From assembly GCF_001598795.1 (NCBI RefSeq), contig NZ_BCZP01000020.1:72879-104878 (forward strand): 32,000 bases of DNA. The letters are read 5' to 3'. This DNA comes from Delftia acidovorans NBRC 14950. GTDB taxonomy: Bacteria; Pseudomonadota; Gammaproteobacteria; Burkholderiales; Burkholderiaceae_C. The translations under genes were made by a program, and so were the position numbers. The notes under the pieces are model-generated. The model was not told the origin of the DNA, did not search any database, and saw only the letters and a program-made list of their open reading frames with translations. Shown one piece after another: positions 1 through 29,891 of the stretch; within the stretch, counting starts at the first letter, position 1; the number at the start of each line of letters is the position of its first letter.

Positions 1-1369
1 CACCTTCGTGAAATTCCACTGGCGGCCTGAGCTGGGCATCCAGTCCACGGTCTGGGACGAGGCCCTCAAGCTGCAGGCCGCAGACAACGACTACCACCGC
101 CGCGACCTGTTCGAGGCCATCGAGGCGGGCGACTACCCGGCCTGGGAGCTGTGCGTGCAGCTGTTCTCGCAGGAGCAGGCAGACGCCCTGCCCTACGACC
201 ACCTGGACCCCACCAAGCTCATCCCCGAAGAGGAAATTCCGCTGCGCAAGATCGGCCGCTTCGTGCTGGACCGCTGGCCCGACAACTTCTTCGCCGAGAC
301 CGAGCAGGTGGCCTTCTGCCCGGCCAATATCCCGCCCGGCATCGATTTCAGCAACGACCCGCTGCTGCAGGGCCGCCTGTTCTCGTACCTGGACACCCAG
401 CTGTCGCGCCTGGGCGGGCCCAACTTCACGCAGCTGCCCATCAACGCGCCCAAATGCCCGTTCGCCCACCACCAGCGCGACGGCCACATGCAGACCGAGG
501 TGCCCAAGGGCCGCGTGGCCTATGAGCCCTCCAGCCTGCAGGCCGACAGCCCGCGCGCCTCGGCAGCCCGCGGCTTGCGGCACTTTGCGCAGCCCGCGCA
601 GGAGGGCGCCAAGGGCCGCATCCGCCCAGAGAGCTTTGCCGACCACTACAGCCAGGCGCGCATGTTCTACCAAAGCCAGAGCGCGCAGGAGCAGGCCCAC
701 ATCGCCAGCGCCCTGGTGTTCGAGCTGTCCAAGGTACAGACGCCGCATGTGCGCTTGGCCGTGGTCGGCCACCTGCAGGTGATAGACGCCGACCTGGCAC
801 AGCGCGTGGCCGACGGCCTGGGCCTGCCCCAGTTGCCGCCTGCCGCCAAGCCTGCCGTGCCCCCGCAAAAGCTGCCGCCCAGCCCGGCCACGCGCATCAT
901 CGACCGCATGAAGCCCACCTTGCAGAGCCGCTGCGTTGCCATCCTGGTGGACGAAGGCTCCAGCGCCAGGCACGTTGCCGCCTTCCACAAGGCGCTGGTG
1001 GCGCAAAAGGCCAGCGTGAAGATCATTGCGCCCAAGATCGGCGGCGCCACGCTGGACGACGGCAGCCACCTGCCCGCCGACGGCCAGCTGGCCGGATCGC
1101 CATCCGCGCAGTTCGATGCCGTGGTGTCCATCATCACGCTGGAGCGCGGCCAGGCGCTGGCCCGTGAGGCAGCCGCGCAGGACTGGTTCCGCGACGCCTT
1201 CGGCCACCTCAAGGCCATTGCCGCCTGCAAGGCCACGCAGCACATCATGAAGACGGCCGGCATCACACCGGACGAGGGCGTGTTCCCCATCGACAAGCCC
1301 GAACCCTTCATCGAAGGCGCCAAGAAGCGCTTCTGGGCCCGCGAAGCGAAGTTGAGAACGCTGGCCTGA
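1..1369 (+). CDS. katE: Catalase HPII (large-subunit, KatE-type), 5'-truncated by the window edge
   Basis: The ORF frame of 8..1369 is open to the window edge. The translation ([100 protein letters not shown]) is colinear with the E. coli KatE core as I remember it. The roughly 150-aa C-terminal extension is typical of large-subunit catalases. Confidence 0.95.
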
Positions 1370-1462
1370 CCCCCCGCCCCGGCGTGCGCCACATCATTGC
1401 CACCAGATGGCACCGCGCCGGACTTCAACCAACCTTGTACCCGGGCCATTTACCTCGGGTCC

Positions 1463-1478
1463 AGGCATGGCGCTTGCC
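1463..1478 (+). promoter_or_regulatory. Candidate sigma-54 (-24/-12) promoter P1
   Basis: AGGCATGGCGCTTGCC has GG at 1464-1465, GC at 1476-1477 and exactly 10 nt between them, matching TGGCACG-N4-TTGCW. It is intergenic, and its GC lies 53 nt upstream of ATG 1531. It shares the extended -12 block GCTTGCCAC with P2. Confidence 0.5.
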
Positions 1479-1530
1479 ACGGCAACACCAAGGCCGGCCC
1501 GGCCTGCCACCCCTACAGGAGCAACTTCCC

Positions 1531-1719
1531 ATGATCACTTCGGTACCTGCACCCCCTGTCACCCCGCCTGTCACCCCGCCTGTTGCGCCCCCGGTCAACC
1601 CGCCCCCCACCGAGCCGCTGGTTCCCCCCGTGGGCGACCCGCCACCGGCCCCGGCACCTTCGCCCTACTCCGACCCGCCCATTGCCCCGCCGCCACCGCC
1701 GCCGCAGGGGGTGCACTGA
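1531..1719 (+). CDS. Small (62 aa) proline-rich protein ending PPPPPPQGVH
   Basis: ATG 1531 is preceded by AGGAG (1517-1521, 9-nt spacer). The sequence is MITSVPAPPVTPPVTPPVAPPVNPPPTEPLVPPVGDPPPAPAPSPYSDPPIAPPPPPPQGVH. Third-position G+C is high. Tandem 12-nt units at 1555-1602 encode PVTP/PVTP/PVAP/PVNP. It has no recognised family and could be a chance ORF in GC-rich DNA. Confidence 0.45.
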   Translation: MITSVPAPPVTPPVTPPVAPPVNPPPTEPLVPPVGDPPPAPAPSPYSDPPIAPPPPPPQGVH

Positions 1720-1781
1720 GCTCCGCGCCAGCCAGGGGCAGGGCAGCGAACGCAGACGGCCCCGGCCCTGCCCTGACCTAT

Positions 1782-2852
1782 GTGAACGACCGCATGCCCG
1801 GCTGGCGCCGCGTGCGGCACGGCAAGGGCTTTTCCTACGTGGCGCAGGACGGCAAGCCCGTGCGCGATGCCCAGGCGCTGGCGCGCATCCGCAAACTGGC
1901 CATTCCACCGGCCTATGTGGATGTCTGGATCTGCCCCGATCCCCAGGGCCACCTGCAGGCCACGGGCCGCGATGCCCGGGGCCGCAAGCAGTACCGCTAC
2001 CACCCGCAGTGGCAGGAACAGCGCAAGCAGGTCAAGTTCGACCGCATGCACGCCTTTGGCCTCCACCTGCCCGCCATCCGTCGGGCGGTGGCGCGCGACC
2101 TCAAGCCTGGCCGGCCGCAGCTGGACACCGTGGTGGCCGCCATCGTCTGGCTGCTGGACTGCACGGCCCTGCGCATAGGCAATGACGAGTATTCCGAGAG
2201 CAATGGCTCCTACGGCCTCACCACGCTCAGAAACCGCCATGCCCAGGTGCACGCGGGTGAGCTGACGCTGAGCTTCAAGGGCAAGAGCGGCGTGCTGCAG
2301 CAGGCCCGCGTGTCCGACCGGGCCGTGGCCCGCATCGTCAAGCGCTGCCAGGAGCTGCCGGGCCAGCGGCTGTTCCAGTTCATCGACGATGAAGGCGAAG
2401 TCCACCATGTGCGATCCGAGCACGTGAACGACTACATCCGCAGGATATGCGGCAAGGCTGCGGCCCATGGGGCTGATACCGCAGATGTCGGAGATGCCGC
2501 AGACAGCCCGGATTTCAGTGCCAAGGATTTCCGCACCTGGCATGCCAGCGTGTACGCGCTGGAACTGGCGCTGACCGCAGGCAAGGCAGCGCCGCAAGAA
2601 GGCGCAGGCACCAGTGCGGCGGCGTTGAACGCTCTGGTCACGCAGGTCGCCCGGCGCCTGGGCAATACCTGTGCGGTTTGCCGCAAGTTCTACATCCATC
2701 CCCAGGTGCTGGCCCTGTGCGAGCAACCTGGGCAGGACATTCCCACCGCACCGGACAGGCGCCCGCGCGGACTGAGCGCCAAGGAATGCCTGTTCCTGGG
2801 GCTGCTGCAGCCCCGCAGCGGCCGGCGCGCCAGTCGCCAGCCGCCTCCCTGA
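1782..2852 (+). CDS. DNA topoisomerase IB (bacterial/poxvirus-like type IB); start codon uncertain
   Basis: LTYVNDRMPGWRRVRHGKGFSYV..IPPAYVDVWICPDPQGHLQATGRDARGRKQYRYHP..LRIGNDEYSESNGSYGLTTLRNRH..FRTWHASV..CRKFYIHP (active-site Tyr context) is the bacterial TopIB signature. The frame is open from 1407. Homology starts at codon 1773, but the first conventional starts are GTG 1782 and ATG 1794, both inside the conserved block and without an SD (see finding). Confidence 0.85.
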   Translation: MNDRMPGWRRVRHGKGFSYVAQDGKPVRDAQALARIRKLAIPPAYVDVWICPDPQGHLQATGRDARGRKQYRYHPQWQEQRKQVKFDRMHAFGLHLPAIRRAVARDLKPGRPQLDTVVAAIVWLLDCTALRIGNDEYSESNGSYGLTTLRNRHAQVHAGELTLSFKGKSGVLQQARVSDRAVARIVKRCQELPGQRLFQFIDDEGEVHHVRSEHVNDYIRRICGKAAAHGADTADVGDAADSPDFSAKDFRTWHASVYALELALTAGKAAPQEGAGTSAAALNALVTQVARRLGNTCAVCRKFYIHPQVLALCEQPGQDIPTAPDRRPRGLSAKECLFLGLLQPRSGRRASRQPPP

Positions 2853-2984
2853 TCCCGCCTCCCGCACGCCCGGCAAACACTGTGCCTGTGGACTGACAAA
2901 GACGCCCGCATGCTCGCCCTTAAACTGGCCGATCATGAAATTTTGTCAAAACGCGTTGCGGCGAGGACCCCTGGAGGCCATGCA

Positions 2985-4616
2985 ATGAACCACGTGCTGA
3001 TCGTCGATGACGATGCGGATTCCGCAGCGACCATGCGCGAACTCGTGGGCGTGGACCGCTTCTCGGTCGCCGTGGCCCACACCCTGCGCGACGCGCGCCG
3101 GCAGATGGCCATGCAGCCGCCCAGCCTGGTGCTGCTGGACCTGCAACTGCCCGATGGCAACGGCATGGACCTTTTCGGCGACCAGCAGGTGCCGCAGGAC
3201 TCGCAGATCGTGCTGGTGACCGGCCACGCCAGCCTGGACTCCTCCATCGAGGCCCTGCGCCGCGGCGCCATGGACTACCTGGTCAAGCCCGTGGGCATCG
3301 GGCGGCTGGAGGACATTCTTTCGCGCTTTCTGATCCCCACGGCTGGCCTGCCGGAGACGGGCACCAGCACCGTCGCGGGCGCGGCCTTCGACCAGATCAC
3401 CCCGCAAGACAGGCCCGGCGCCGGCTACTGCGCGCAGGAAGGGCGCTTTGGCCGGCTGTGGGGCGGCTCGCCCCCCATGCAGCGGCTGTACCAGCAGATG
3501 GAGCGCGTGGCGGGTACCTCGGTCACGGTCTTTCTGACGGGCGAAAGCGGCACCGGCAAGGAAGTCGTGGCACAGACCCTGCATGAGCTGAGCCAGCGGC
3601 GCAGCCGGCCCTTCCTGGCGGTCAACTGCGGTGCCATTTCTCCGCACCTGATCGAAAGCGAGATCTTTGGCCATGAAAAGGGAAGCTTCACCGGCGCCGA
3701 CCGCCAGCACCAGGGCTTTTTCGAGCGCGCGGCCACGGGCACGCTGTTTCTGGACGAAATCACGGAAATGTCGATGGAGCTGCAGGTCAAGCTGCTGCGC
3801 GTGCTGGAGACCGGGCGCTTCATGCGCGTGGGCTCCACACAGACGCTGCAGACCGATGTGCGCGTGATCGCCGCCACCAACCGCTGCCCCTACGAGGCCG
3901 TGGCCAGCGGCAAGCTGCGCGAAGACCTGCTGTACCGCCTGAACGTCTTCCCCATCGAGCTGCCGCCGCTGCGCGAGCGCCTGACCGACGTTCCGCTGCT
4001 TGCGCAGCATTTCATGGAGGCCATCTCCCAGCGCGAGGGCCAGGCCAAGCAATTCACGGCATCGGCCCTCAAGCAGCTTGCGCAATACAGCTGGCCCGGC
4101 AATGTGCGCGAGTTGCGCAATGCCGTGCAGCGCGCCTATGTGATGGAGCCCGGCCCGCTGGTGGGCCAGGAATGGCTGCCCCGGCCGCCCGTGGCCATTG
4201 CCCAGCAGCCGGCCCCGGTGCATCCGGCCGCCCACGCCCTGCACCTGCCCCAAGTGCCGGAAATGCCGCAAATGCCACATATGCCGCAGGCGGGGTCCAT
4301 GCCAATGAGCGCGCCATTGACCACGCCATTGACTGCGCCCACCTCCCCCACCATCACAGCGCATGCGCCCGCCGACCACGCCCCTGCAGCCGCCACCTAC
4401 GACCTGCCCGACACGGAGCCGGCCACCATACAGCTGCCCATCGGCATGACCATGGCGCAGGCCGAGCGGTTGCTCATCCAGGCCACGCTCAAGCAGTGCA
4501 AGTACCAGAAGGAACGCACGGCGGCCGTGCTCGGCATCAGCCTCAAGACCCTGTACAACCGGCTCAGGGACTATGGGGGGGGCAAAAAGGGCGAAACGGA
4601 CGCCGAGCCCGGCTGA
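2985..4616 (+). CDS. Sigma-54-dependent transcriptional activator (NtrC-family response regulator: REC + AAA+ + Fis-type HTH)
   Basis: ATG 2985 follows GGAGG (2973-2977). The receiver domain is MNHVLIVDDD..LVLLDLQLPDGNG..LVTGH..YLVKP. The AAA+ domain has Walker A GESGTGKE, the GAFTGA-type loop as GSFTGA, and Walker B LFLDEI. The C-terminal HTH is RTAAVLGISLKTLYNRL. Confidence 0.93.
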   Translation: MNHVLIVDDDADSAATMRELVGVDRFSVAVAHTLRDARRQMAMQPPSLVLLDLQLPDGNGMDLFGDQQVPQDSQIVLVTGHASLDSSIEALRRGAMDYLVKPVGIGRLEDILSRFLIPTAGLPETGTSTVAGAAFDQITPQDRPGAGYCAQEGRFGRLWGGSPPMQRLYQQMERVAGTSVTVFLTGESGTGKEVVAQTLHELSQRRSRPFLAVNCGAISPHLIESEIFGHEKGSFTGADRQHQGFFERAATGTLFLDEITEMSMELQVKLLRVLETGRFMRVGSTQTLQTDVRVIAATNRCPYEAVASGKLREDLLYRLNVFPIELPPLRERLTDVPLLAQHFMEAISQREGQAKQFTASALKQLAQYSWPGNVRELRNAVQRAYVMEPGPLVGQEWLPRPPVAIAQQPAPVHPAAHALHLPQVPEMPQMPHMPQAGSMPMSAPLTTPLTAPTSPTITAHAPADHAPAAATYDLPDTEPATIQLPIGMTMAQAERLLIQATLKQCKYQKERTAAVLGISLKTLYNRLRDYGGGKKGETDAEPG

Positions 4617-4627
4617 CACCCGCCTGC

Positions 4628-4643
4628 AGGCACGCTGCTTGCC
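4628..4643 (+). promoter_or_regulatory. Candidate sigma-54 (-24/-12) promoter P2
   Basis: AGGCACGCTGCTTGCC has GG at 4629-4630 and GC at 4641-4642 with N10 spacing. It starts 12 nt after the EBP stop, and its GC lies 38 nt upstream of ATG 4681. Confidence 0.65.
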
Positions 4644-4680
4644 ACCTTGCTTGCACCTTCGTGCAACCAAGGACAAGCCC

Positions 4681-5208
4681 ATGGACTCCTCTCCTCCCCG
4701 CGCCTACGGTGTCTTCAAGCCCGTGGGCCACATGGTGGTCTCGTTTCCCACAGCTGCGCAGGCCGATGACGGCGTGGCCGCGCTGCAGGCGCTGGACCTG
4801 CCCGCCCAGGACATCCAGCGCTATACCGACCGGGAAATGCTGGCCCAGATCGATGAAGACCTGCGCCAGGCCAGCCCCGTTGCCGCCGTGGGCCAGGAGC
4901 TCAACCTGGTCAAGGCCCACCAGGCCCTGGCCGAACGCGGCTACCACTGGCTGGTGGTGCGCGTGGACAACGACGAGGCCGCACGCATGGCCGCCGATGC
5001 CCTGAAGGCCGCCGGCGCCGAGCGCGCCCAACTGTATGGCCGCTTCATCATCGAGGAATTGATAGAGCACGCCGCCGACCTGCCCCAGGTCAGCGAGTCG
5101 CCCGACCGGGGCCTGGATGCCCAGACGCCTTCGGGCCATGAGGCGGAGCGTGCAGAGATTCGCCCTGCCTCGGACCAGGACACCGCCCCTGACAAGCCGA
5201 GGCTCTGA
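4681..5208 (+). CDS. Hypothetical soluble protein (175 aa), predicted sigma-54-dependent
   Basis: ATG 4681 is preceded by AAGGA. Third-position G+C is high throughout. The translation starts MDSSPPRAYGVFKPVGHMVVSFPTAAQADDGVAALQALDL. There is no TM segment and I do not recognise a family. Confidence 0.7.
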   Translation: MDSSPPRAYGVFKPVGHMVVSFPTAAQADDGVAALQALDLPAQDIQRYTDREMLAQIDEDLRQASPVAAVGQELNLVKAHQALAERGYHWLVVRVDNDEAARMAADALKAAGAERAQLYGRFIIEELIEHAADLPQVSESPDRGLDAQTPSGHEAERAEIRPASDQDTAPDKPRL

Positions 5209-5224
5209 ACGGCCTGCAGGAGCC

Positions 5225-5240
5225 GGGCACGCCGATTGCC
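5225..5240 (+). promoter_or_regulatory. Candidate sigma-54 (-24/-12) promoter P3
   Basis: GGGCACGCCGATTGCC has GG at 5226-5227 and GC at 5238-5239 with N10 spacing. It is intergenic, and its GC lies 40 nt upstream of ATG 5280. Confidence 0.65.
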
Positions 5241-5276
5241 CTTGACCACCAACCGTAACTTTTTCTCAAGGGCAAT
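5235..5276 (+). other. Leader stem-loop: 11-nt perfect inverted repeat ATTGCCCTTGA / TCAAGGGCAAT with a 20-nt loop
   Basis: The arms are 5235-5245 and 5266-5276. The left arm overlaps the -12 element of P3. The right arm covers the purine-rich AAGGG just upstream of ATG 5280. Confidence 0.4.
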
Positions 5277-5279
5277 GCC

Positions 5280-5558
5280 ATGGACTTCCTCATCTGGCTG
5301 ATGGTGGGTGGCCTGATCGGCTGGATTACCAGCATGGTCACGAACACCCAGGCCGAGCAGGGCATTTTGCTCAACGTGGTCATAGGCGCCATTGGCGCAC
5401 TGCTGGGCGGCTGGCTGCTGGCGCCGATGCTGGGGCCTTCGGCCATGAATGCGCAGACGGAGGCGCCGGCCACCTCCATGTCCATCTTCGTCTCTCTGGC
5501 CTGCGCCGTTGCGCTGCTGGCCATCTTCAACCTGTGCAAGCGGAGCGTGCCGCGCTGA
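5280..5558 (+). CDS. GlsB/YeaQ/YmgE family (transglycosylase-associated) stress-response membrane protein
   Basis: The 92-aa product is MDFLIWLMVGGLIGWITSMV..GILLNVVIGAIGALLGGWLL. This is the typical Gly-rich three-TM pattern of the family. Confidence 0.85.
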   Translation: MDFLIWLMVGGLIGWITSMVTNTQAEQGILLNVVIGAIGALLGGWLLAPMLGPSAMNAQTEAPATSMSIFVSLACAVALLAIFNLCKRSVPR

Positions 5559-5576
5559 AAGCGGCCAGGCAGCCTG

Positions 5577-7148
5577 TCAGTCCAGCCTTTGCGCCAGGCA
5601 GTCCTGCGCCGCCATGGCCACGCGCGGCAGCACCAGTGAGACCGCCAGGCAGCGGCCATGCTCACCCTCGGCCCGCACCACGCCACCGCGCTCCAGGCAC
5701 AGGCGGCGCGCCAGGCTCAGGCCGCAGGTGGCGTCCGCATCGGCATCGTTCAATGGAGTGAAGACAGGCGGCGGGTCCTGCCTTTCCACACTTTCCAGCC
5801 GTGGCGCGCCCGCCTCGCCAGTACCGGAGCCGGTGCTGGCGGCGCCCGCCCCGTGGGCCAGGGCCTCGATGCGGATCTCCACCAGCGCATTCCCGCGAGA
5901 AGCTGCGGCCTGGTCCTCGGGCAGGGGCCGGGCGGCCATGTGCACCTGCGCGCCATCGGTCATCGCTTCGCGGATGGCAAGAAAAATACTGATCAGCGCC
6001 AGCTCCAGCTCATCCGGGTCCACATGCACGCCCAATCGCGGCGCCGGCTGGCCGGGCTGACTGGCCTCGGCAGGCTCCGCCACCTCCATCGCCATGCGCT
6101 TGCCCAGCACCACGGCCAGCGTGCCCTGCAGGCCGGGCAGCCAGCGGTACAGGTCCACCACCAGCGCATGCGTGCAATGGCGCGCCCCAAAACGCAGCAG
6201 TTGCTGCGTGAGGCGGCTGGCCGTGTCCACCGAGCGCAGCATGGCCTGGGCGGGCAGGCGCAGGCCCGGGTCCTCGGAGCGCCGCTCTATCAGATAGGCG
6301 CTGTTGCTCAGAATGCCCAGCTGGTTGTTGAACTCATGGGAAAACCGGCCTGCCAGCCGCCCCACCACCTGCAGGCGTTCGCTCTGGAGACGGGCAGCGG
6401 CCTCTTCGAGGCCGGCAGCGTCCACCGCAGCGCCATCGGGCCGGCCGGCATCACCGCCGCCCTGGCCCTGGCCATGGTCTTGCGCATTGCCGCCCATTGC
6501 CGGCAACACCAGGGCCGCGCTGCCCCGCAGCGCCAGCCGCGCCAATCCCAGGCCCGCCACCGCAAACAAAACGATGGCCACCCAGATCACCCCCTTCAGG
6601 GGCCGGGAGCATGCGGGGTCCAGCGCAGAACAGGGGACCCAGCTCACCCAGGTCCAGCCCTGGGCGGACTTGCTGAAGAAGGCCCGCAGCGGCCCGCCCT
6701 GCGCATCTGGCAGATCCAGCCAGCCCTGCGAAGCGTCCTGCCCTGCGCCCTGCCCTGCGCTTTGCTCTGCGCCTTGCCCCGCACTTTTCACGCCGGGCGC
6801 AGCCTGCGCCAGGCTGGCCGCCAGCCGTTCGCTGAAATCGGCGGGCAAGGCAGGCAGGTCGGCTGCCGCGCCGGGCCCGGCCGGCAGGGCGCGGCCTGTG
6901 CTGTCCACCAGAAAGCCGGGCCAGCCGGAGTCCAGCAAGGGCCGCAAGGCCGCCAGCACCTGGTCGGCGCCGGCCGTGCGCGGCTCCTTGTCCAGCAAAT
7001 GGGCCACGGCCATGCTGCTGACGCGCGCGGCCTGCTCCTGCGCCGCATGCTCGGATTGGTAGGCGCGCAACAGCAGCCAGGACGAGGCCGCCAGTACAAA
7101 GACCAGCAAGGCCAGCAGCAGCAGGACCAACCTCAGGCGTATGGACAT
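5577..7148 (-). CDS. Membrane sensor histidine kinase with an intact H-box but degenerate N/G1 ATP-binding boxes
   Basis: The start is at 7148 (MSIRLRLVLLLLALLVFVLAASSW, TM1). The longer 820-aa ORF extension is antisense to rpoN and was rejected. A second TM is KGVIWVAIVLFAVAGLGLA. The H-box is FSHEFNNQLG. The catalytic region reads ALISIFLAIREAM where NtrB-like kinases have LLNLxxNARDAM. It also reads EALAHGAGA in place of DxGxG. Confidence 0.8.
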   Translation of the reverse strand: MSIRLRLVLLLLALLVFVLAASSWLLLRAYQSEHAAQEQAARVSSMAVAHLLDKEPRTAGADQVLAALRPLLDSGWPGFLVDSTGRALPAGPGAAADLPALPADFSERLAASLAQAAPGVKSAGQGAEQSAGQGAGQDASQGWLDLPDAQGGPLRAFFSKSAQGWTWVSWVPCSALDPACSRPLKGVIWVAIVLFAVAGLGLARLALRGSAALVLPAMGGNAQDHGQGQGGGDAGRPDGAAVDAAGLEEAAARLQSERLQVVGRLAGRFSHEFNNQLGILSNSAYLIERRSEDPGLRLPAQAMLRSVDTASRLTQQLLRFGARHCTHALVVDLYRWLPGLQGTLAVVLGKRMAMEVAEPAEASQPGQPAPRLGVHVDPDELELALISIFLAIREAMTDGAQVHMAARPLPEDQAAASRGNALVEIRIEALAHGAGAASTGSGTGEAGAPRLESVERQDPPPVFTPLNDADADATCGLSLARRLCLERGGVVRAEGEHGRCLAVSLVLPRVAMAAQDCLAQRLD

Positions 7149-7476
7149 GGGATCTTCGGGTAGGGCATCACGCGGCGCCTCCCGTGGAACGGAATTTTGG
7201 GCCCCCGGGGGCGGGACCGTGTGGAAGCTGGTGGACTGGTACATGGCAAAGTTTGCAGAAAACCTTGCGCCCAAACGGCAATTTCTGCCGTGGACGCCAT
7301 GACCGGCCCCGCTGTTCCAGAACCGATCCCCCGCAGCGGCGGCAAAACCCTGGGCCCCGTGCCGCCTGCGCAGGGAGACCACAGCAGGTTTCGTGCCCAA
7401 AGTGTATCCAGACGATTCGCCGCCCGCATGGCGGCATGGAGCTTGCGTCTTCGGGTCATCGCACCAAGGAGATGAA

Positions 7477-9039
7477 ATGGGTTCCATGCACCTCAGGGCG
7501 GACATACGCCAGTCCCAGACGCTTTCTCCCCGCCTGCAGCTTGCAGTGCGGATGCTGCAGATGTCCTCGCTGGACTTTGCCGCCGTGGTGCGCAGCAAGC
7601 TGGAGGACAACCCGTTCCTGGAAGACCCGCAAGATGCGCAGGACGGCGAGTACGAACAGGGGCTGCTCGACGGCAAGGAGCTGGGTGAAGAGGACCGGGA
7701 AGGCGGCATGGGCAGGCTGGCCCCGGAGGCAGGCCTGGCCCCGGACACGGGCATGGATGACGGCATCGGCATGGGCATCGGTCTGGACATGGACCGCGAT
7801 CTCCCCGGCATGCAGCACCCGCCCGACCCGGCCGACCACCTGCCCGGCCCCGCCACCGAACCCGCCGACGACCGCGACCTGTGGCTGGCCGACATGCATA
7901 CCGGCGCGCGCCAGGGGGTGGATGGAGAAGGCACCGCCATGGATCTGGCGGCCTGCGAGACCACGCTGGCCATGCACCTGCACGGCCAGCTCAATGTGAT
8001 GACGATGACGCCGCGCGACCTGTGCATGGCCCGCGCCATCGTGGAGTCGCTGGACGACGACGGCTATCTGCGCACCGACCTGCAGGAGCTGGCCGGCCTG
8101 CTGGCCCTCACCCCCGCACCTGACGCGCAGGAAATGCTCATTGCCCTGCGCCTGGTGCAATCGCTGGACCCGGCCGGCGTGGCCGCCCGCAGCGTGGGCG
8201 AATGCCTGTTGCTGCAATGCCCGCAGATCGGCGATGCCCACCTGCGCCAGCTGGCCCAGGCCATGGTGCAGGACCACATGGATGCGCTGGCCGCCCGCGA
8301 CGTGCCCCGGCTGGCCCGGGCGCTGCAGGTGCCACCCGCGCAGATCACGCAGGCGCTGGACTGCATACGTCGGCTGAACCCCAGGCCGGGCTGGAACTTC
8401 GGCTCCTCCCACGTGGACTACATCGTTCCCGACGTGATCGTGCGCCGGGGCCAGAACGGCTGGGACGTGCACCTCAACCCCGCGGTCGTGCCGCGCGTGC
8501 GCCTGAACCGCGTCTACGAGCAGCTGTTTCAGCGCCACCGCCGCAGCGGCCAGAACCAACTGGCCGACCACCTGCAGGATGCGCGCTGGACGGTGCGCAA
8601 CGTGGAGCAGCGCTTTTCCACCATCCTCGACGTGGCGCAGGCCATCGTGCGCAAGCAGCAGCTGTTCCTGGAGTTCGGCGCCATGGCCATGAAGCCGCTG
8701 GTGCTGCGCGAGATTGCCGAGGAAGTGGGCGTGCACGAGTCCACCGTCTCGCGCGTGACCAACAACAAATACATGGCCACGCCCACGGGCGTGTTCGAGC
8801 TCAAGCATTTCTTCTCGCGCCCCATGCTCAGCGCCAGCGGCAATGCCTGCTCGGCCACGGCCATCCGCGAGCTGATCGGCGACATCATCGCGGCCGAGTC
8901 CGATGCCCGGCCGCTGTCGGATGTTGAAATCGCACGCCAGCTCGGTGCCCAGGGCCTGGTCGTGGCGCGCCGCACCGTCACCAAATACCGCCAGCTGCTG
9001 CGCATAGAACCGGCCGACCGGCGCAGGCGCCACGCCTGA
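7477..9039 (+). CDS. rpoN: RNA polymerase sigma-54 factor (RpoN), probably a paralogous/accessory copy
   Basis: ATG 7477 lies 5 nt after AAGGAG (7466-7471). Region I is LRADIRQSQTLSPRLQLAVRMLQMSSLDF. Region II is long and acidic. The HTH is IAEEVGVHESTVSRVTNNKYM and the RpoN box is ARRTVTKYRQLL. The flanking genes are not the lptB/hpf/ptsN set that normally surrounds the housekeeping rpoN. Confidence 0.93.
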   Translation: MGSMHLRADIRQSQTLSPRLQLAVRMLQMSSLDFAAVVRSKLEDNPFLEDPQDAQDGEYEQGLLDGKELGEEDREGGMGRLAPEAGLAPDTGMDDGIGMGIGLDMDRDLPGMQHPPDPADHLPGPATEPADDRDLWLADMHTGARQGVDGEGTAMDLAACETTLAMHLHGQLNVMTMTPRDLCMARAIVESLDDDGYLRTDLQELAGLLALTPAPDAQEMLIALRLVQSLDPAGVAARSVGECLLLQCPQIGDAHLRQLAQAMVQDHMDALAARDVPRLARALQVPPAQITQALDCIRRLNPRPGWNFGSSHVDYIVPDVIVRRGQNGWDVHLNPAVVPRVRLNRVYEQLFQRHRRSGQNQLADHLQDARWTVRNVEQRFSTILDVAQAIVRKQQLFLEFGAMAMKPLVLREIAEEVGVHESTVSRVTNNKYMATPTGVFELKHFFSRPMLSASGNACSATAIRELIGDIIAAESDARPLSDVEIARQLGAQGLVVARRTVTKYRQLLRIEPADRRRRHA

Positions 9040-9051
9040 AACCTGGCGTGG

Positions 9052-9066
9052 TGGCAAGCGGCGTGC
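9052..9066 (+). promoter_or_regulatory. Weaker candidate sigma-54 promoter P4
   Basis: TGGCAAGCGGCGTGC has GG at 9053-9054 and GC at 9065-9066 with N10 spacing. It starts 13 nt after the rpoN stop, but its GC is 142 nt upstream of ATG 9209, and the -12 element reads GTGC rather than TTGC. Confidence 0.3.
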
Positions 9067-9208
9067 CTGTCCAAAAGCCTGTCCGGCCCGTCCTGCCAAG
9101 CCCCACCGCCGTGCAGCGGCTTGTCGCTCCCGCAGGGCATGCCTTGTCCGACAGTTGCAGGCCGCCGCCCGGCCTAAGGTGAAAGCTCATGGACTGAAGG
9201 AGCCCGCC

Positions 9209-9523
9209 ATGGACAACTCACCCCGCCGAATGCATGCCCCCCTCGAACGCCAGCGCAGCGAGAACAACCACATCCGCGACGGACGCTGGCCCCTGCGCAT
9301 TGGCGCACTCACCGCCGCCGTCGCACTGATCCTGGTGCTGATGTTCAACTTCATGGCCCCCAAGGGCCGGCTGGATGCGCCCAGCGCCACTGGAGCGACT
9401 GGAACGCCTTCGCCCTCACCGTCTCCCGCGACACAGTCCGTGTCGCCGCCCGCGCCTTCCGCCGCGCCGCAGCAGGCTGATCCGGCCACGACGCCTGCCC
9501 CCACCTCCACGCCTGCGCGCTGA
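9209..9523 (+). CDS. Single-pass membrane protein with a Pro/Ser/Thr/Ala-rich tail (104 aa)
   Basis: ATG 9209 lies 6 nt after GAAGGAG. The N-terminus is basic, followed by a TM segment (LRIGALTAAVALILVLMFNFM) and a low-complexity tail (TGTPSPSPSPATQSVSPPAPSAAPQQ). I do not recognise a family. Confidence 0.55.
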   Translation: MDNSPRRMHAPLERQRSENNHIRDGRWPLRIGALTAAVALILVLMFNFMAPKGRLDAPSATGATGTPSPSPSPATQSVSPPAPSAAPQQADPATTPAPTSTPAR

Positions 9524-9571
9524 GCCGGCATCCACCGCTCATCACCACACACCCCCAAAAGGACACGCACC

Positions 9572-9766
9572 ATGAATCACCCTCTGCCCCACGCACCCAA
9601 TATTCCCCAGGTGCCGACCACGCCCAACGACCCAGTGGCCCCCGATGATCCCAACCGCCAGCCCGGCCGCCCGCGCGGGCCCGAGCCCATCGACCCGCCC
9701 ACCACGGCGCCGCCCATCGAGCTGCCACCGTCCCCGGAGCAGGAACAGACGCGCAAGGGAGAGTGA
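9572..9766 (+). CDS. Small (64 aa) proline-rich protein
   Basis: ATG 9572 is preceded by AAGGA. The sequence is MNHPLPHAPNIPQVPTTPNDPVAPDDPNRQPGRPRGPEPIDPPTTAPPIELPPSPEQEQTRKGE. Its stop (9764-9766) is 1 nt before the next ATG, and its last codons supply that gene's SD (AAGGGAGAG), which suggests translational coupling. Confidence 0.45.
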   Translation: MNHPLPHAPNIPQVPTTPNDPVAPDDPNRQPGRPRGPEPIDPPTTAPPIELPPSPEQEQTRKGE

Positions 9767-9767
9767 C

Positions 9768-9968
9768 ATGCCACAAGGTGACAAATCGGCCTATACCGAT
9801 AAGCAAAAGCGCCAGGCTCGGCATATCGAAGACAGCTACGAGTCGCGCGGCGTGGGCCACGAAGAAGCTGAAAAGCGCGCCTGGGCCACCGTGAACAGGC
9901 AAAGCGGCGGCGGCAAGCTGTCGGGCTCGGGCCGGGGCAGGCAAGCGGGCCAGTCCAAGTCAAAATAA
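9768..9968 (+). CDS. Small conserved stress-associated protein (66 aa; family often auto-annotated as plasmid stabilization protein)
   Basis: The sequence is MPQGDKSAYTDKQKRQARHIEDSYESRGVGHEEAEKRAWATVNRQSGGGKLSGSGRG. I recognise the KSxYTDKQKR...AWATVN pattern from small proteobacterial proteins, from memory only. Confidence 0.7.
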   Translation: MPQGDKSAYTDKQKRQARHIEDSYESRGVGHEEAEKRAWATVNRQSGGGKLSGSGRGRQAGQSKSK

Positions 9969-10011
9969 CCGCGACTGCGGCCAGGCCCGAGACCCGAGAC
10001 CCGCAATTGCC

Positions 10012-13000
10012 GTGGGAGAAAGTGTGAACTCAGAAGACAGTTTTCGATTCCTGCCGCAGCGCGGCGAAATGCCGGCACGCGTGCGTTCCCACGACTGGGC
10101 GGCCACGCCCCTGGGATCGCCGGATGGCTGGCCGCAGAACCTGCGCAATGCCGTGAGCCTGGCGCTGGGCTCGCGCTTTCCCATCACCATCTGGTGGGGC
10201 GAAGACTTCCGCCTGATCTACAACGATGGCTATATCCCCTTCCTGGGAACCAGCAAGCACCCCCAGGCGCTGGGCCAGGCCGGCGCGCACTGCTGGAGCG
10301 AGATCTGGAGCGATATCGGCCCCATGCTGGAAGGCGTGATGCGTACCGGCGAGGCCACCTGGTCCACCGACGCCCGCTACTTCTTCGACCGCGACCTGCC
10401 CCAGGAAGAGGTCTTCGTGACCTTCACCTACGGCCCCATCCTGGCCGATGACGGCGTCACCGTGCAGGGCGTGTTCTGCCCCTGCACCGAGACCACGGAA
10501 AAAATCGTCAGCCGCAGGCGCCTGGAGACGCTGCACCGCCTGGGCATACGCACGCTGGACATGCACAACGCCAGGGACGCCGCCCAGAAAGTCTGCGCCG
10601 TGCTGGACGAGAACCCCTACGACGTGCCCTTCGCCATCATCTACGAATGCGTGGACACCCCTGCCGCGGGCAGCGCAGGCGCCAGCGGCCCGGCCTTCAG
10701 GATGCTCTGCGCCACGGGCATGGATATGGACATGGAGCTGGCGGCCGACCCCTCGCGCTGGCCGCTGGACCGGGCCGTGCAATCCGATCCATCGGACCGA
10801 ACGGACCAGGCGCATCAGGCGGCCCAGCCGGGCCAGCCCGCCAATGTGGAACTGGCGTCCTTGGGCCTGTCCCTGCCCGGCGGCCCCTGGCCCGAGGTCT
10901 CGCGTCTGGCGCGCATCGTGCCTGTGCGCTGGTCGGGCGACGGCCAGGTCTCGGGCGTGATGGTGCTGGGCGTCAGCCCGCGCCGTCCGCTGGATGTGGA
11001 CTATTGCGCCTTCCTCGACATGGTGGCAAGCCACACGGGCAGCGTGGTCGCGCACGCCCAGGCCTACGAGCAGGAAGCGCGGCGCGCCAAGGCCCTGGCC
11101 GAGGTGGACCACGCCAAGACCGTGTTCTTCTCCAACGTCAGCCACGAGCTGCGCACCCCGCTGACCCTGATCCTGGGCCCGCTGGAAGATGCCCTGCGCG
11201 AGCACGGCGGCCAGGTGCCGGCCGGGCAGACGCAGATGATCCACCGCAACGCGCTGCGCCTGCAAAAACTGGTCAATGCCCTGCTGGACTTCTCGCGCAT
11301 CGAGGCCGGGCGCATGCAGGCCAGCTACGAGCCCACGGACCTGGCCCGCACCACGGCCGAGCTGGCCAGCATGTTCCGCTCGGCCGTGGAGCAAGCCGGC
11401 CTGCGGCTGCGCGTGGATTGCCCGCCGCTGGACGGACCGGTCCATGTGGACCGCGACATGTACGAAAAAATCGTGCTCAACCTGTTGTCCAACGCCTTCA
11501 AGTTCACGCTGCAAGGCGAAATCGCAGTGGCGCTGCGCGATGTGCCCGATGTGTCCGATGTGTCCGATGCGCACGGCGCGGGCGGGGCCGATGGTGCGGT
11601 GGAGCTGTCCGTCACCGACACCGGATCGGGCATTGCGCCCCAGCACCTGCCCCATCTCTTCCAGCGTTTTCACCGCATTCCCGGCAAGCCGGCCCGCACG
11701 CACGAGGGCACGGGCATCGGCCTGGCCATGGTGCAGGAGCTGGCACGACTGCATGGCGGCACCGTCACGGTCAGCAGCACGGAGGGCGAAGGCAGCCGCT
11801 TCACCGTGCGCCTGCCCAGGGGGCATGCGCATCTTCCGGCCGAGCACCGGCCCGCGCGCCCGCCTGCATCGCACCCGCAGGTGGATGAGGCCCTGCGCTG
11901 GCTGCCCGGCGAGCCCGCCCCGGCTGCCAGCGACGAAGTCAGGCCCATGCAGCGGGACATGCGCGGTACGCAGCCCCCACGCGCCCGCATCGTCTGCGCC
12001 GATGACAACGCCGACATGCGCAGCTACATCGGCCAGTTGCTGGAGCCGCTGTATGAAGTGGAGATCGTGGGCGATGGCCGCGCCGCGCTGGCCAGCATCC
12101 ACCGCCAGCGGCCCGACCTGGTGCTGGCCGACGTGATGATGCCCGTGCTCGACGGCTTCGAGCTGCTGCATGCGCTGCGCAGTGACGAGACCACGCGCGC
12201 CATTCCCGTCATCATGCTGTCCGCGCGGGCCGGCCAGGAGGCCCAGGTCGAAGGCCTGCGCGCGGGCGCGGACGACTACCTGGTCAAGCCCTTTTCGGCG
12301 CGCGAGTTGCTGGCGCGCATCGCATCGCTGCTGCAGCTGGTGCGTGTGCGCGAACAGGTCCACGCCGCCGTGCAGGCCAACGAGAAAAAGCTGCGCGCCA
12401 TCATCGACCAGATGCCTGCGGGCGTGGGCGTCTCCGACATGAGCGGCACCATGGTATTGAGCAATGCGCTCATGGACCGCTTCGTGCCGCGCGCCATTCC
12501 GTCCACCCTGGCGGACCGCCTGCCGCGCTGGAAGGGATGGGATGACAAGGGCCAGCCCATTGCCCCCGAGAACTGGCCCGGCAAGCGCGCGCTGCGCGGC
12601 GAAGTGGTCATGCCGGGTCTGGAGATGCTGCACACCGACGACGATGGCCGCGAATGGTGGATGCGCGTCAGCTGCGCGCCGCTGCGCGATGACGACGGCC
12701 AGCTCATAGGCACCTGCTCCGTCATACAGGACATCACCGAACTCAAACAGGCCGAGTACCACCTCAAGGAAGCCGACCGACGCAAGGACGAATTCCTGGC
12801 CACGCTGGCGCATGAGCTGCGCAATCCGCTGGCGCCCATCAGCCACGGCCTGCAAATCCTCAAGCGCACCGCCAGCGGCGACGACAGCGTGCGCCACAGC
12901 CACGAGATGCTGGAGCGCCAGGTCAACCACATGATCCGCATGGTGGACGACTTGCTGGAGGTCTCGCGCATCACCACGGGCAAGGTCCAGTTGCGCAAGG

Positions 13001-13884
13001 AACTGGTGGATCTGAACGATGTGCTGCAAGGCGTGGTGGCGGCCAGCGGCGCGGTCATGGAGGCAGGCAGCCACCAGTTGCGCCTGGAGCTGCCCGCCGC
13101 GCCCGTATCGCTGCTGGCCGACCCGATGCGGCTGGCGCAGATGGTCTCCAACCTGCTCAACAATGCCGCCAAGTACTCGCACTCCGGCGGCCACATCGTT
13201 CTGTCCGCCTGGACCGATGGCGCGCAGGCCGTGGTCTCGGTACGCGACAACGGCATCGGCATCCCGCCCGCCCTGCTGGGCAAGGTGTTCGATCTGTTCA
13301 TGCAGGTGGACCGCAACGGCCGCCGTGGGCAGGGCGGCCTGGGCATCGGGCTGACCCTGGTGCGCAGCCTGGTCGAGATGCACGGCGGCAGCGTGCAGGC
13401 GCTCAGCGGAGGCAAGGGCCAGGGCAGCGAATTCAGGCTGCACCTGCCCCTGCCCACCCAGGCGCAGCCCCTGGCGGGACAGGCACCAAATGCCCAGCCC
13501 GAGGATGCAACGGCCTTCGGCCGCATCCTGGTGGTCGATGACAACATCGACGCCGCCGACACCCTGGCCATGCTGCTCAGGCTGCTGGGCGCCGAAGTCG
13601 AGATTGCCCGCGACGGCCCCGGCGCCCTGGCCATGCACGCGGCGTTCAGGCCCGAAGTGGTGCTGCTGGACATCGGCCTGCCCGGCATGGACGGCCTGGA
13701 GGTCGCCCGCCGCATCCGTGCCGAGCACGGCCGCGACCAGGTCGTGCTGATCGCGCTCACGGGCTGGGGGCAGGAGGAGGACCTGAGACGATCGCGGGAA
13801 GCCGGCATGGACCACCACCTGGTCAAACCCGTGAGCTTCGACACGCTCGAGCGTCTGCTGGCGGGCCTGCGTCCCCTGCCGTGA
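10012..13884 (+). CDS. Double-core hybrid sensor histidine kinase (PAS/GAF-like - HisKA - HATPase - REC - PAS - HisKA - HATPase - REC)
   Basis: The start is GTG 10012 or GTG 10024 (GGGAG lies 5 nt upstream of the latter). The N-terminus is FRFLPQRGEMPARVRSHDWAATPLG. H-box 1 is FFSNVSHELRTPL and REC1 is RIVCADDN..LVLADVMMPVLDG. After the PAS domain, H-box 2 is EFLATLAHELRNPL with N-box NLLNNAAKY. REC2 is RILVVDDN..VVLLDIGLPGMDG. Confidence 0.9.
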   Translation: MGESVNSEDSFRFLPQRGEMPARVRSHDWAATPLGSPDGWPQNLRNAVSLALGSRFPITIWWGEDFRLIYNDGYIPFLGTSKHPQALGQAGAHCWSEIWSDIGPMLEGVMRTGEATWSTDARYFFDRDLPQEEVFVTFTYGPILADDGVTVQGVFCPCTETTEKIVSRRRLETLHRLGIRTLDMHNARDAAQKVCAVLDENPYDVPFAIIYECVDTPAAGSAGASGPAFRMLCATGMDMDMELAADPSRWPLDRAVQSDPSDRTDQAHQAAQPGQPANVELASLGLSLPGGPWPEVSRLARIVPVRWSGDGQVSGVMVLGVSPRRPLDVDYCAFLDMVASHTGSVVAHAQAYEQEARRAKALAEVDHAKTVFFSNVSHELRTPLTLILGPLEDALREHGGQVPAGQTQMIHRNALRLQKLVNALLDFSRIEAGRMQASYEPTDLARTTAELASMFRSAVEQAGLRLRVDCPPLDGPVHVDRDMYEKIVLNLLSNAFKFTLQGEIAVALRDVPDVSDVSDAHGAGGADGAVELSVTDTGSGIAPQHLPHLFQRFHRIPGKPARTHEGTGIGLAMVQELARLHGGTVTVSSTEGEGSRFTVRLPRGHAHLPAEHRPARPPASHPQVDEALRWLPGEPAPAASDEVRPMQRDMRGTQPPRARIVCADDNADMRSYIGQLLEPLYEVEIVGDGRAALASIHRQRPDLVLADVMMPVLDGFELLHALRSDETTRAIPVIMLSARAGQEAQVEGLRAGADDYLVKPFSARELLARIASLLQLVRVREQVHAAVQANEKKLRAIIDQMPAGVGVSDMSGTMVLSNALMDRFVPRAIPSTLADRLPRWKGWDDKGQPIAPENWPGKRALRGEVVMPGLEMLHTDDDGREWWMRVSCAPLRDDDGQLIGTCSVIQDITELKQAEYHLKEADRRKDEFLATLAHELRNPLAPISHGLQILKRTASGDDSVRHSHEMLERQVNHMIRMVDDLLEVSRITTGKVQLRKELVDLNDVLQGVVAASGAVMEAGSHQLRLELPAAPVSLLADPMRLAQMVSNLLNNAAKYSHSGGHIVLSAWTDGAQAVVSVRDNGIGIPPALLGKVFDLFMQVDRNGRRGQGGLGIGLTLVRSLVEMHGGSVQALSGGKGQGSEFRLHLPLPTQAQPLAGQAPNAQPEDATAFGRILVVDDNIDAADTLAMLLRLLGAEVEIARDGPGALAMHAAFRPEVVLLDIGLPGMDGLEVARRIRAEHGRDQVVLIALTGWGQEEDLRRSREAGMDHHLVKPVSFDTLERLLAGLRPLP

Positions 13885-16481: not shown

Positions 16482-16543
16482 CATGCCTGCGGTGCCAGGG
16501 CGGCATGCCCGGCACCGCCTGCAATGGCCAACGCCGCATTTCA

Positions 16544-16572
16544 TTGATGCAGATCAGCCTGATCTGCATCAA
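16544..16572. promoter_or_regulatory. 29-bp perfect palindrome containing two FNR/Anr-like boxes
   Basis: TTGATGCAGATCAG c CTGATCTGCATCAA. Each 14-mer matches TTGAT-N4-ATCAA with one mismatch. It lies 62-90 nt upstream of hemerythrin ATG 16634. No U-tract follows on either strand, so it is not a classical terminator. Confidence 0.45.
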
Positions 16573-16633
16573 GGAGCTATGTGACAGTCCCATGAATACT
16601 TCTCTGGAAATCACCGAATTCCTGGAGAACGTC

Positions 16634-17146
16634 ATGGCATTGCTGGTCTGGGTCCCCGAGCTGGACACCGGGATTGCAGAAATCGACCGGCAGCATCGCC
16701 GCATCGTCGATTACATCAACAAGCTCTACGAGCTGCGCTCGTCGCCCGACCGTGAGGCCCTGGGCGATGTCATCGGCGAGATGATCGACTACACCGTCTC
16801 GCACTTCGTGTTCGAGGAAAGCCTGATCGAGAGCGCCGGCTACATGTTCGCCGGCCCGCACAAGAAGGTGCACGAGCTGTTCACGCGCCGCGTGATAGAG
16901 ATGCAGACCCGCTTCGATGCAGGCGAGGACGTGGCCGCCGAGCTGCACGGCATGCTCTCGCGCTGGCTGTTCAACCACATCCGCAACGAAGACACCGGCT
17001 ACGTGGATTCGGCCAAGGCCTATCTGCGCATGGCGCGCGAGTCCAGTCCTGCCGCCGAGAAGGAAAGGCTCAAGAACGAAGTGCTGCAGGAGCTGGAACT
17101 GCAGCGCAAGAAAAAGGGCTGGCTGGCACGGCTGCTCAATCGCTGA
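16634..17146 (+). CDS. Bacteriohemerythrin (hemerythrin-like O2/iron-binding protein) with a basic C-terminal extension
   Basis: ATG 16634 lies 6 nt after GGAG. MALLVWVPELDTGIAEIDRQHRRIV..HFVFEE..HKKVH..WLFNHIRNEDTGY carries the H..HxxxE..H..HxxxxD diiron ligand pattern. An upstream in-frame ATG at 16592 has a poorly spaced SD. Confidence 0.85.
   Translation: MALLVWVPELDTGIAEIDRQHRRIVDYINKLYELRSSPDREALGDVIGEMIDYTVSHFVFEESLIESAGYMFAGPHKKVHELFTRRVIEMQTRFDAGEDVAAELHGMLSRWLFNHIRNEDTGYVDSAKAYLRMARESSPAAEKERLKNEVLQELELQRKKKGWLARLLNR

Positions 17147-25802: not shown

Positions 25803-29891
<4,089 letters not shown>

Follow-up and report, generated by a model that had tools for sequence, protein, structure and literature searches.

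A second-sigma-54 module of Delftia with two classes of -24/-12 sites and a candidate stress regulon

The 32-kb stretch of Delftia DNA analysed here (the window) carries a paralogous gene for sigma-54 (RpoN), referred to below as rpoN2, in a module that also includes genes for an NtrC-type activator and a kinase-like protein. A preliminary description of the same DNA had placed these three genes at 7477-9039, 2985-4616 and 5577-7148, respectively; they are found there, and domain matches confirm the identity of rpoN and of the activator. It had also stated that this rpoN lies outside the lptB/hpf/ptsN context, and its neighbours bear this out, being a pseudokinase gene on one side and small open reading frames (ORFs) on the other. 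The closest protein match is from Delftia sp. SD018 (98% identity), and the gene order of the module is kept in the two comparison loci from the genus, D. acidovorans MMO-42 (L001) and D. tsuruhatensis (L002). The genes are:

2..1369, plus strand: large-subunit catalase of the katE type, 3' part (Catalase, Catalase-rel and Catalase_C domains)
1531..1719, plus strand: 62-aa proline-rich small protein (ribosome-binding site and third-position pattern among three Delftia)
1782..2852, plus strand: bacterial topoisomerase IB (Top1B_N_bact and Topoisom_I domains)
2985..4616, plus strand: NtrC-type activator (Response_reg, Sigma54_activat and HTH_8 domains; Pfam)
4681..5208, plus strand: 175-aa conserved protein without a Pfam domain (1336 homologues)
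5280..5558, plus strand: GlsB/YeaQ/YmgE (Transgly_assoc) small membrane protein (PF04226)
5577..7148, minus strand: membrane pseudokinase (H-box present, ATP-binding boxes gone, without a receiver)
7477..9039, plus strand: rpoN2, paralogous sigma-54 (Sigma54_AID, CBD and DBD domains)
9209..9968, plus strand: three small ORFs of 104, 64 and 66 aa, the third of the KSxYTDKQKR/AWATVN type
10012..13884, plus strand: hybrid sensor kinase, 1290 aa (PAS/GAF, 2 HisKA, 2 HATPase_c and 2 receivers; Pfam)

The product of rpoN2 is a complete RpoN, which matches PF00309, PF04963 and PF04552 (Pfam), exceeds the NCBIfam cut-offs of TIGR02395 (410 against 277) and NF009118 (501 against 396), and aligns with the solved K. 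pneumoniae/E. coli sigma-54 (E value 1e-85). Within its clade the recognition helix is invariant as SRVTNNK[Y/F] and the RpoN box as ARRTVTKYRQ, the Klebsiella counterparts being SRVTTQKY and ARRTVAKYRE, respectively. That the gene is a paralogue, as had been supposed, agrees with the supplement of Francke et al. 2011, which credits D. acidovorans SPH-1, A. citrulli AAC00-1, B. pseudomallei K96243 and R. solanacearum GMI1000 with two RpoN proteins each, and Variovorax, Polaromonas, Leptothrix, Methylibium and Diaphorobacter with a single one. The reading would have to be given up were this the only rpoN of the genome; that condition is excluded for the species by the two RpoN of D. acidovorans SPH-1, if not formally for the strain.

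The activator displays the features of an NtrC-type enhancer-binding protein, i.e., PF00072, PF00158 and PF02954 together with the loop GSFTGA. It scores below every named NCBIfam equivalog cut-off (NtrC, AtoC, ZraR, LuxO etc.), the highest values being those for AtoC (353 against 714) and NtrC (349 against 559), and its sequence places it in an unnamed subfamily of NtrC-type regulators. Relatives with 55-66% identity are encoded close to rpoN2 in many loci, a co-conservation that agrees with the earlier notion of a dedicated activator, and from this linkage we propose that the product of 2985-4616 is the cognate activator of RpoN2. The product of 5577-7148 retains the H-box (SHEFNNQL). The label "degenerate" given to it is correct, because the N, G1 and G2 boxes are lost, a receiver is missing, and no kinase domain is matched significantly (no HATPase_c match; HisKA at an E value of 0.11). 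All three boxes are still present in an intact 761-aa relative, and relatives elsewhere are intact 761-aa kinase-receiver proteins encoded behind sigma-54 sites (cluster C9). As predicted from these residues the protein is a pseudokinase, which might modulate phosphotransfer at most. The likely sensor of the module, judging from linkage, is the hybrid kinase of 10012-13884, which adjoins the module in other Delftia also and has a relative in the Ralstonia rpoN2 locus.

A search with the strict pattern GGCAYG-N4-TTGC gave 5 matches in the 32 kb of the window, where 0.60 are expected, and 5 or more were reached in 0 of 100 shuffles. All five fall in 1464-9067. Sites followed by C at -11 are called cargo class below, after the genes that they precede. 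The sites and a candidate enhancer are:

1464..1477, plus strand: P1, -24/-12 site GGCATGGCGCTTGC, then C at -11; exact match, GC 53 nt before the ATG
2873..2886, minus strand: reverse cargo-class site GGCACAGTGTTTGC, then C; one mismatch, 98 nt 5' of the activator ATG
4629..4642, plus strand: P2, -24/-12 site GGCACGCTGCTTGC, then C; exact match, GC 38 nt before the ATG
5226..5239, plus strand: P3, -24/-12 site GGCACGCCGATTGC, then C; exact match, GC 40 nt before the ATG
7246..7268, no strand assigned: 23-bp near-dyad GCAAAGTTTGCAGAAAACCTTGC, candidate enhancer, about 165 nt 5' of the rpoN promoter
7384..7397, minus strand: site GGCACGAAACCTGC facing the pseudokinase gene; one mismatch, back-to-back with the rpoN promoter
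7433..7446, plus strand: putative sigma-54 promoter of rpoN itself, GGCATGGAGCTTGC, then G at -11; exact match, 30 nt before the rpoN ATG
9054..9067, minus strand: exact cargo-class match overlapping P4; 15 nt after the rpoN stop, pointing into rpoN

The spacing reported earlier for P1-P3 was correct, the exact matches and the GC distances of 53, 38 and 40 nt being as given, and the extended block GCTTGCCAC is present in both P1 and P2, as had been noticed, and also in the minus-strand reading of P4. Of the three to four promoters counted previously, P1-P3 stand, and a fifth site at 7433-7446, before rpoN, had been missed. P4 as drawn on the plus strand does not hold up: it has two mismatches there, the exact match being on the minus strand only, and this 9054-9067 site is found in the window and in D. 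acidovorans (L001) and is missing from D. tsuruhatensis (L002). A comparable site drives a convergent small gene in L005 and L007. P2, P3 and the rpoN promoter are kept in three Delftia species, as are both one-mismatch sites (2886 and 7397, minus strand). P1 is present in the window and D. tsuruhatensis (two of three Delftia) and is deleted in D. acidovorans MMO-42, where the proline-rich ORF comes straight after katE. With their consensus, intergenic position, orientation toward genes and conservation, P1-P3 and the rpoN-own sites are predicted to be sigma-54 promoters. A scan of 1300-10100 for sigma-70 promoters gave 0 matches (0.6 expected), terminators in the same interval did not exceed chance level, Rfam and tRNA scans gave no matches, and a three-mismatch scan with TGGCACG-N4-TTGCW was uninformative (77 matches against 84 expected).

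The near-dyad at 7246-7268 is a candidate enhancer of the rpoN promoter. It is present in a single copy in the window, and its position is kept in Delftia, Comamonas, Acidovorax, Ottowia, Roseateles and Mitsuaria loci. A dyad enrichment search 5' of the sites yielded the promoter-like GGCA-N7-TGCC and a few lineage-specific dyads. Just 5' of the -24 element of rpoN, at 7405-7428, is the block CCCAAAGTGTATCCAGACGATTCG, which is kept in Delftia, Comamonas terrae and Acidovorax and may be the site of a bending protein or of a second regulator. Directly 3' of P2, at 4647-4662, there is a perfect 6-bp inverted repeat, TTGCAC-CTTC-GTGCAA, approximately at the predicted start of the transcript of the 175-aa gene.

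The reverse site 5' of the activator gene is recurrent. It is located 84-111 nt before the activator start in 8 of 14 sequences (13 loci and the window), namely in the window (2873-2886), L001 (5466), L002 (5228), L005, L007 (1605-1618), L039, L058 and L065, and in Delftia and Ottowia it aims into the 3' end of the topoisomerase IB gene. In Aquabacterium (L039) the topoisomerase IB gene is divergent from that of the activator, so that the reverse site there may be its promoter. Elsewhere, we speculate that it gives rise to an antisense transcript or provides a holoenzyme seat which damps activator expression.

Synteny across Burkholderiales, a check put forward in the preliminary description, was followed in 80 loci with RpoN relatives (51-93% identity) from species-representative genomes. 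They span Delftia, Comamonas, Acidovorax, Ottowia, Hydrogenophaga, Roseateles/Mitsuaria/Pelomonas, Ideonella, Rubrivivax, Aquabacterium and many metagenome-assembled genomes, and many of them hold, within 10 kb, topoisomerase IB, the activator, the 175-aa protein, GlsB, the kinase and sometimes katE. Both lptB and hpf are absent in the three loci with annotated neighbours (the window, L081 and L082), no direct search for them having been made in the 80 loci. Across the related loci (1.47 Mb) the strict motif was counted 274 times, whereas first-order Markov simulations gave 21, an approximately 13-fold enrichment. With the window included there are 280 sites, of which 226 lie between genes and point at the start of a gene on their own strand not more than 300 nt away (median 61 nt); this share of 81% is a lower bound, because the ORF caller had been trained with the codon usage of Delftia and breaks down on the Comamonas and Ottowia loci, whose GC content is lower. 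Only 10 of the 280 sites are intragenic. When the orientation of the sites is flipped, 91 are productive in this sense instead of 226, a bias that argues for promoters and against a symmetric operator. A strict site is located 5' of rpoN in 69 of 82 sequences. Related second-sigma-54 modules are carried by many Burkholderiales, the rpoN2 of Ralstonia and Burkholderia included.

The sites are divided into two classes by the base at -11. Of the 69 rpoN-own sites, 69% have G at this position, 30% have A and 0% have C, whereas C is found in 190 of the 211 other sites (90%; background C 34%), and the split of 0/69 against 190/211 has a Fisher p of 4e-47. The window follows the same division, with TTGCG before rpoN and TTGCC at P1, P2, P3 and the minus-strand P4. 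Sites of the Burkholderia rpoN2 locus read TTGCT and those of Ralstonia TTGCA or TTGCT. The cargo class GGCACG-N4-TTGCC, as read from the sequences, holds for Comamonadaceae and Sphaerotilaceae, and the -11 rule is lineage-specific. The dichotomy at -11, together with the DNA-binding residues by which the sigma factors of this clade differ, leads us to infer that RpoN2 reads the TTGCC class.

The ORFs behind the strict sites (the cargo) were clustered, and representatives were scanned with Pfam. The families obtained are:

rpoN itself: 69 sequences (including the window)
DUF883/ElaB-like: 18 sequences
receiver-only regulator: 18 sequences
GlsB (cluster C5): 15 sequences (including the window)
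outer-membrane beta-barrel: 12 sequences
sensor kinase-receiver: 9 sequences
BON lipoprotein: 8 sequences
Crp-like regulator: 8 sequences
phospholipase D/cardiolipin synthase-like: 7 sequences
175-aa protein: 5 sequences (including the window)
PRC-barrel: 5 sequences
GT4 glycosyltransferase: 4 sequences
hemerythrin: 4 sequences

Strict sites also precede YkuD-like proteins and several unnamed small proteins. KatE, OsmY/BON, ElaB/YqjD (DUF883), YmgE/GlsB and PRC-barrel proteins are types found in the general stress regulons of RpoS and EcfG. Measured against these regulons, the cargo is what would be expected of a general stress regulon, and the stress-type content that had been suggested for the window extends, by Pfam, across the related loci. 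The additional suggestion of a dormancy gene set found no specific support.

Among the individual cargo genes of the window, GlsB (5280-5558) matches PF04226 with an E value of 3.3e-5 and 24.5 bits, slightly below the 25.3-bit cut-off. The proline-rich protein has no Pfam or NCBIfam family. Differences in its ORF among three Delftia species are mostly synonymous third-position changes and the ribosome-binding site is conserved; the possibility that it is an artefact of a longer overlapping ORF (1407-2852) was rejected, as the substitution pattern shows coding. Topoisomerase IB (1782-2852) is probably co-transcribed from P1, and it recurs close to rpoN2 in Comamonadaceae, Roseateles and Burkholderia loci. 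The katE gene is adjacent to the module, as had been pointed out, but there is no sigma-54 site 5' of it in L001 and L002, the two Delftia loci with the upstream region, and in Delftia it is therefore a neighbour instead of demonstrated cargo. In Hydrogenophaga, katE is behind a one-mismatch TTGCC site.

The 175-aa protein has 60-75% identity across genera, which exceeds the conservation of RpoN2, and is invariably encoded beside a receiver domain, i.e., receiver-only regulators in L084 and L085 (homologues at 10001-10504 and 10001-10498, respectively) and the activator in Delftia. Its structural model has a ferredoxin-like core with weak PII/ACT-like matches (E values of at least 0.15), and it is possibly a signalling partner. 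The three small ORFs of 9209-9968 have no family matches in Pfam or NCBIfam. The third has a relative close to rpoN2 in Acidovorax (L008), with 80% identity in the part that could be matched, and a 108-aa protein type that is possibly related to it, though unaligned, follows strict sites elsewhere (cluster C35). The 120 nt before the ATG at 9209 (9090-9210) are about 95% identical in three Delftia, the stretch just before them having diverged; this segment has no Rfam match and no sigma-54 or sigma-70 consensus, and could be a regulatory leader.

Farther from the module, 7-8 kb on its 3' side, are a hemerythrin gene (16505-17146, plus strand) and a universal stress protein gene (17237-17674, minus strand). 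Neither has a strict sigma-54 site in the window; hemerythrin is sigma-54 cargo in other genera. At 25803-29891 (plus strand) is encoded a 1362-aa protein which combines a Ser/Thr kinase, a nucleotide cyclase domain, an AAA_16 ATPase and TPR repeats.

Systems of this kind have been published before, under the name rpoN2 and with an obscure function, from Burkholderiales. The preliminary description had considered it undescribed, which does not hold for Ralstonia (PMC4676750) and B. pseudomallei (PMC4745423), and our literature search found no paper on the module in Comamonadaceae. The rpoN2 gene of R. solanacearum (RSp1671) is preceded, at a distance of 63 nt, by the site TGGCACAGCCTTTGCA, and an rpoN2-lacZ fusion is silent in rich medium, induced in minimal medium and unexpressed in an rpoN1 mutant, while the role of the gene "remains enigmatic" (PMC4371752). 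We found TGGCACAGCCTTTGCA again in the Ralstonia locus L081, before rpoN2. In Lundgren et al. (PMC4676750), Rsp1667 and Rsp1668 are listed as activators with rpoN2 as a possible target, and four Ralstonia activators have GSFTGA or GAYTGA. Like the window, Ralstonia has a second rpoN out of context, which is preceded at about 60 nt by a sigma-54 promoter, and an adjacent GSFTGA-type activator (57% identity), and L081 has a hybrid kinase nearby and a gene for a small protein that follows a sigma-54 site; a sigma-54 promoter 5' of rpoN2 and a linked orthologous activator, as in the RSp1671-type module, are both found in the window. In contrast, the two RpoN2 share 42% identity, the Ralstonia sites read TTGCA/TTGCT rather than TTGCC, the location is the megaplasmid, no stress regulon has been proposed, and there is an extra activator-like gene of the AAA-only type. 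At 42% identity, the link between the two modules is drawn from shared neighbours. The second activator-like gene of L081 (6785-7945) is divergent from the full-length activator gene, and the match of its product to the window activator is confined to the AAA+ domain of the latter (residues 155-387), with 60% identity.

In a B. pseudomallei mutant of rpoN2, both the katE transcript and the activity are lost at 48-72 h (PMC4745423). This RpoN2, encoded on chromosome 2, resembles that of the window in being a paralogous sigma-54 tied to a stationary-phase/oxidative-stress gene, but katE is RpoN2-dependent there, whereas the Delftia katE is adjacent without a detectable sigma-54 site; that paper (PMC4745423) defined neither an activator nor a wider regulon. 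A Burkholderia rpoN2 locus has genes for BON, DUF2383, DUF4142, DJ-1, topoisomerase IB, PRC and DUF3175 proteins around rpoN, and productive one-mismatch sites before PRC, topoisomerase IB, DJ-1, an 84-aa unnamed ORF, DUF2383, BON and rpoN.

The R. etli rpoN2 is dependent on NifA and sigma-54 and is linked to a peroxiredoxin operon. Going by a title listed in PMC3162934, this second rpoN of Rhizobium etli resembles that of the window in a regulation unlike that of the housekeeping copy, but its context is symbiotic nitrogen fixation and not small stress proteins. The RpoN1-4 of Cereibacter sphaeroides are likewise paralogous sigma-54s each with its own activator (NifA, FleQ/FleT, AprX), and promoter discrimination at -11 is reported for them (Poggio 2006, as summarised in PMC3162934, and PMC11999139). 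They belong to another lineage, however, with nitrogen fixation, flagella and an Xre repressor as cargo, and their specificity is experimental, that in the window inferred. The general stress factors RpoS (gamma- and betaproteobacteria) and EcfG (alphaproteobacteria) overlap with the window in cargo types, but they are of the sigma-70 family and work without an ATP-dependent activator, while the window promoters are of the -24/-12 type.

On the components, the oriented and conserved -24/-12 sites, their two sequence classes and the cargo identities, all of which were observed, we build the following reading, which we consider probable: the window holds the Delftia version of the Burkholderiales rpoN2 module, with a second sigma-54 at the head of a two-step cascade. 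A signal would be sensed, probably by the hybrid kinase (10012-13884), which would phosphorylate the receiver of the activator (2985-4616). The rpoN2 gene would then be transcribed from its own TTGCG promoter (7433-7446), most likely read first by RpoN1, i.e., the housekeeping sigma-54, by analogy and homology with Ralstonia, and with the near-dyad 165 nt upstream as candidate enhancer. The RpoN2 holoenzyme, opened by the same activator, would in turn transcribe the TTGCC class. Its targets in the window would be the proline-rich protein and topoisomerase IB, the 175-aa protein and GlsB, with promoters 30-90 nt ahead; in the relatives they would include DUF883/ElaB, BON, PRC-barrel, hemerythrin, phospholipase D/cardiolipin synthase-like, outer-membrane barrel and receiver proteins. 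Such a module is hardly "self-contained", as it had been termed: the promoter of rpoN2 is of the other class, Ralstonia rpoN2 needs rpoN1, and the likely sensor is outside the interval claimed (1463-9968). Overall, the observation on which the preliminary description was built is confirmed, and its interpretation is partly supported.

Several points weigh against the cascade as drawn. The Delftia promoters and regulon are predictions from sequence, and the assignment of TTGCC to RpoN2 is drawn from the sequence dichotomy. The activator is within 10 kb of rpoN2 in only about a quarter of the loci, and the housekeeping rpoN of this strain was not among the best 120 protein matches, all of them relatives scoring near the query. 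The dyad search found no shared enhancer 5' of P1-P3, where the intergenic spacers are only 64-160 nt, and two consensus sites (2886 and 9067) are oriented the "wrong" way. Moreover, C at -11 is no general rule, because Burkholderia and Ralstonia cargo sites have the ordinary TTGCT or TTGCA, and the RpoN2 of both Ralstonia and B. pseudomallei complement an E. coli rpoN mutant, so that those proteins read canonical promoters. The last two observations also favour the notion that all promoters, TTGCC included, are read by any sigma-54, RpoN2 being a redundant or dose-increasing copy and the -11 difference a matter of promoter strength or tightness, or of a different activator, rather than of sigma specificity. 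We regard this as unlikely, given that the sigma gene and the promoter-bearing cargo are conserved together in three families, that the clade has an invariant and unusual recognition helix and RpoN box, and that 0/69 against 190/211 at -11 is too sharp for drift.

There is very little to recommend, in our estimation, the view that the element is no promoter and instead an operator, bound by a dimeric transcription factor on a palindromic GGCA-N7-TGCC shell. It is true that C at -11 makes the element a near-palindrome, that the conserved reverse copies at 2886 and 9067 are 5' of plus-strand genes, that such copies recur 84-111 nt 5' of the activator gene, and that GGCA-N7-TGCC is enriched further upstream of the sites too. 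The strong orientation bias (226 productive against 91 flipped) is, however, at odds with an operator, as are the conserved inner asymmetry (CAYG versus NTT), the fixed and short distance to the start codon (median 61 nt), the tight linkage of the sites to a sigma-54 gene, and the rpoN1 dependence found experimentally for the Ralstonia rpoN2 site. Equally improbable is the view that the module is an island gained by horizontal transfer, now in decay and of little use to present-day Delftia. A degenerate kinase, the deletion of P1 in one species and the absence of P4 from another, the patchy occurrence of the second rpoN in Comamonadaceae, and a Ralstonia rpoN2 for which no phenotype was found might all be expected of decay, but no ORF is disrupted, three Delftia species share P2, P3 and the rpoN promoter, the small ORF is under purifying selection, and the module is conserved across families.

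Beyond the two-step cascade, we tentatively extend the proposal, at somewhat less than even confidence, to RpoN2 and its activator as the master regulator of a sigma-54 general stress response in Comamonadaceae, Sphaerotilaceae and Burkholderiaceae, with a private -11C dialect in Comamonadaceae/Sphaerotilaceae and RpoN1 as the switch. If so, the dialect (SRVTNNK helix, ARRTVTKYRQ box) would insulate the regulon from the housekeeping sigma-54, and a further kind of general-stress sigma system would stand beside RpoS, EcfG and SigB. What appears to be new here is the proposed stress regulon, the division of the promoters into two classes and how widely the module is conserved. Knockouts of the second rpoN in Ralstonia and Burkholderia gave almost no phenotype, and its role has been called enigmatic in print; the comparison offers a concrete candidate regulon, which comprises topoisomerase IB and small proteins of the membrane, the periplasm and the stress response, with catalase added in some genera, together with a candidate activator, a candidate sensor and a cascade from RpoN1. 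The single-base feature of C at -11 could explain how two sigma-54 factors are kept separate in one cell. If confirmed, an ATP-gated, tightly off sigma-54 mechanism would serve a general stress programme in these bacteria, and RpoN1 and RpoN2 with their promoters would constitute a natural pair of orthogonal sigma-54/promoter sets.

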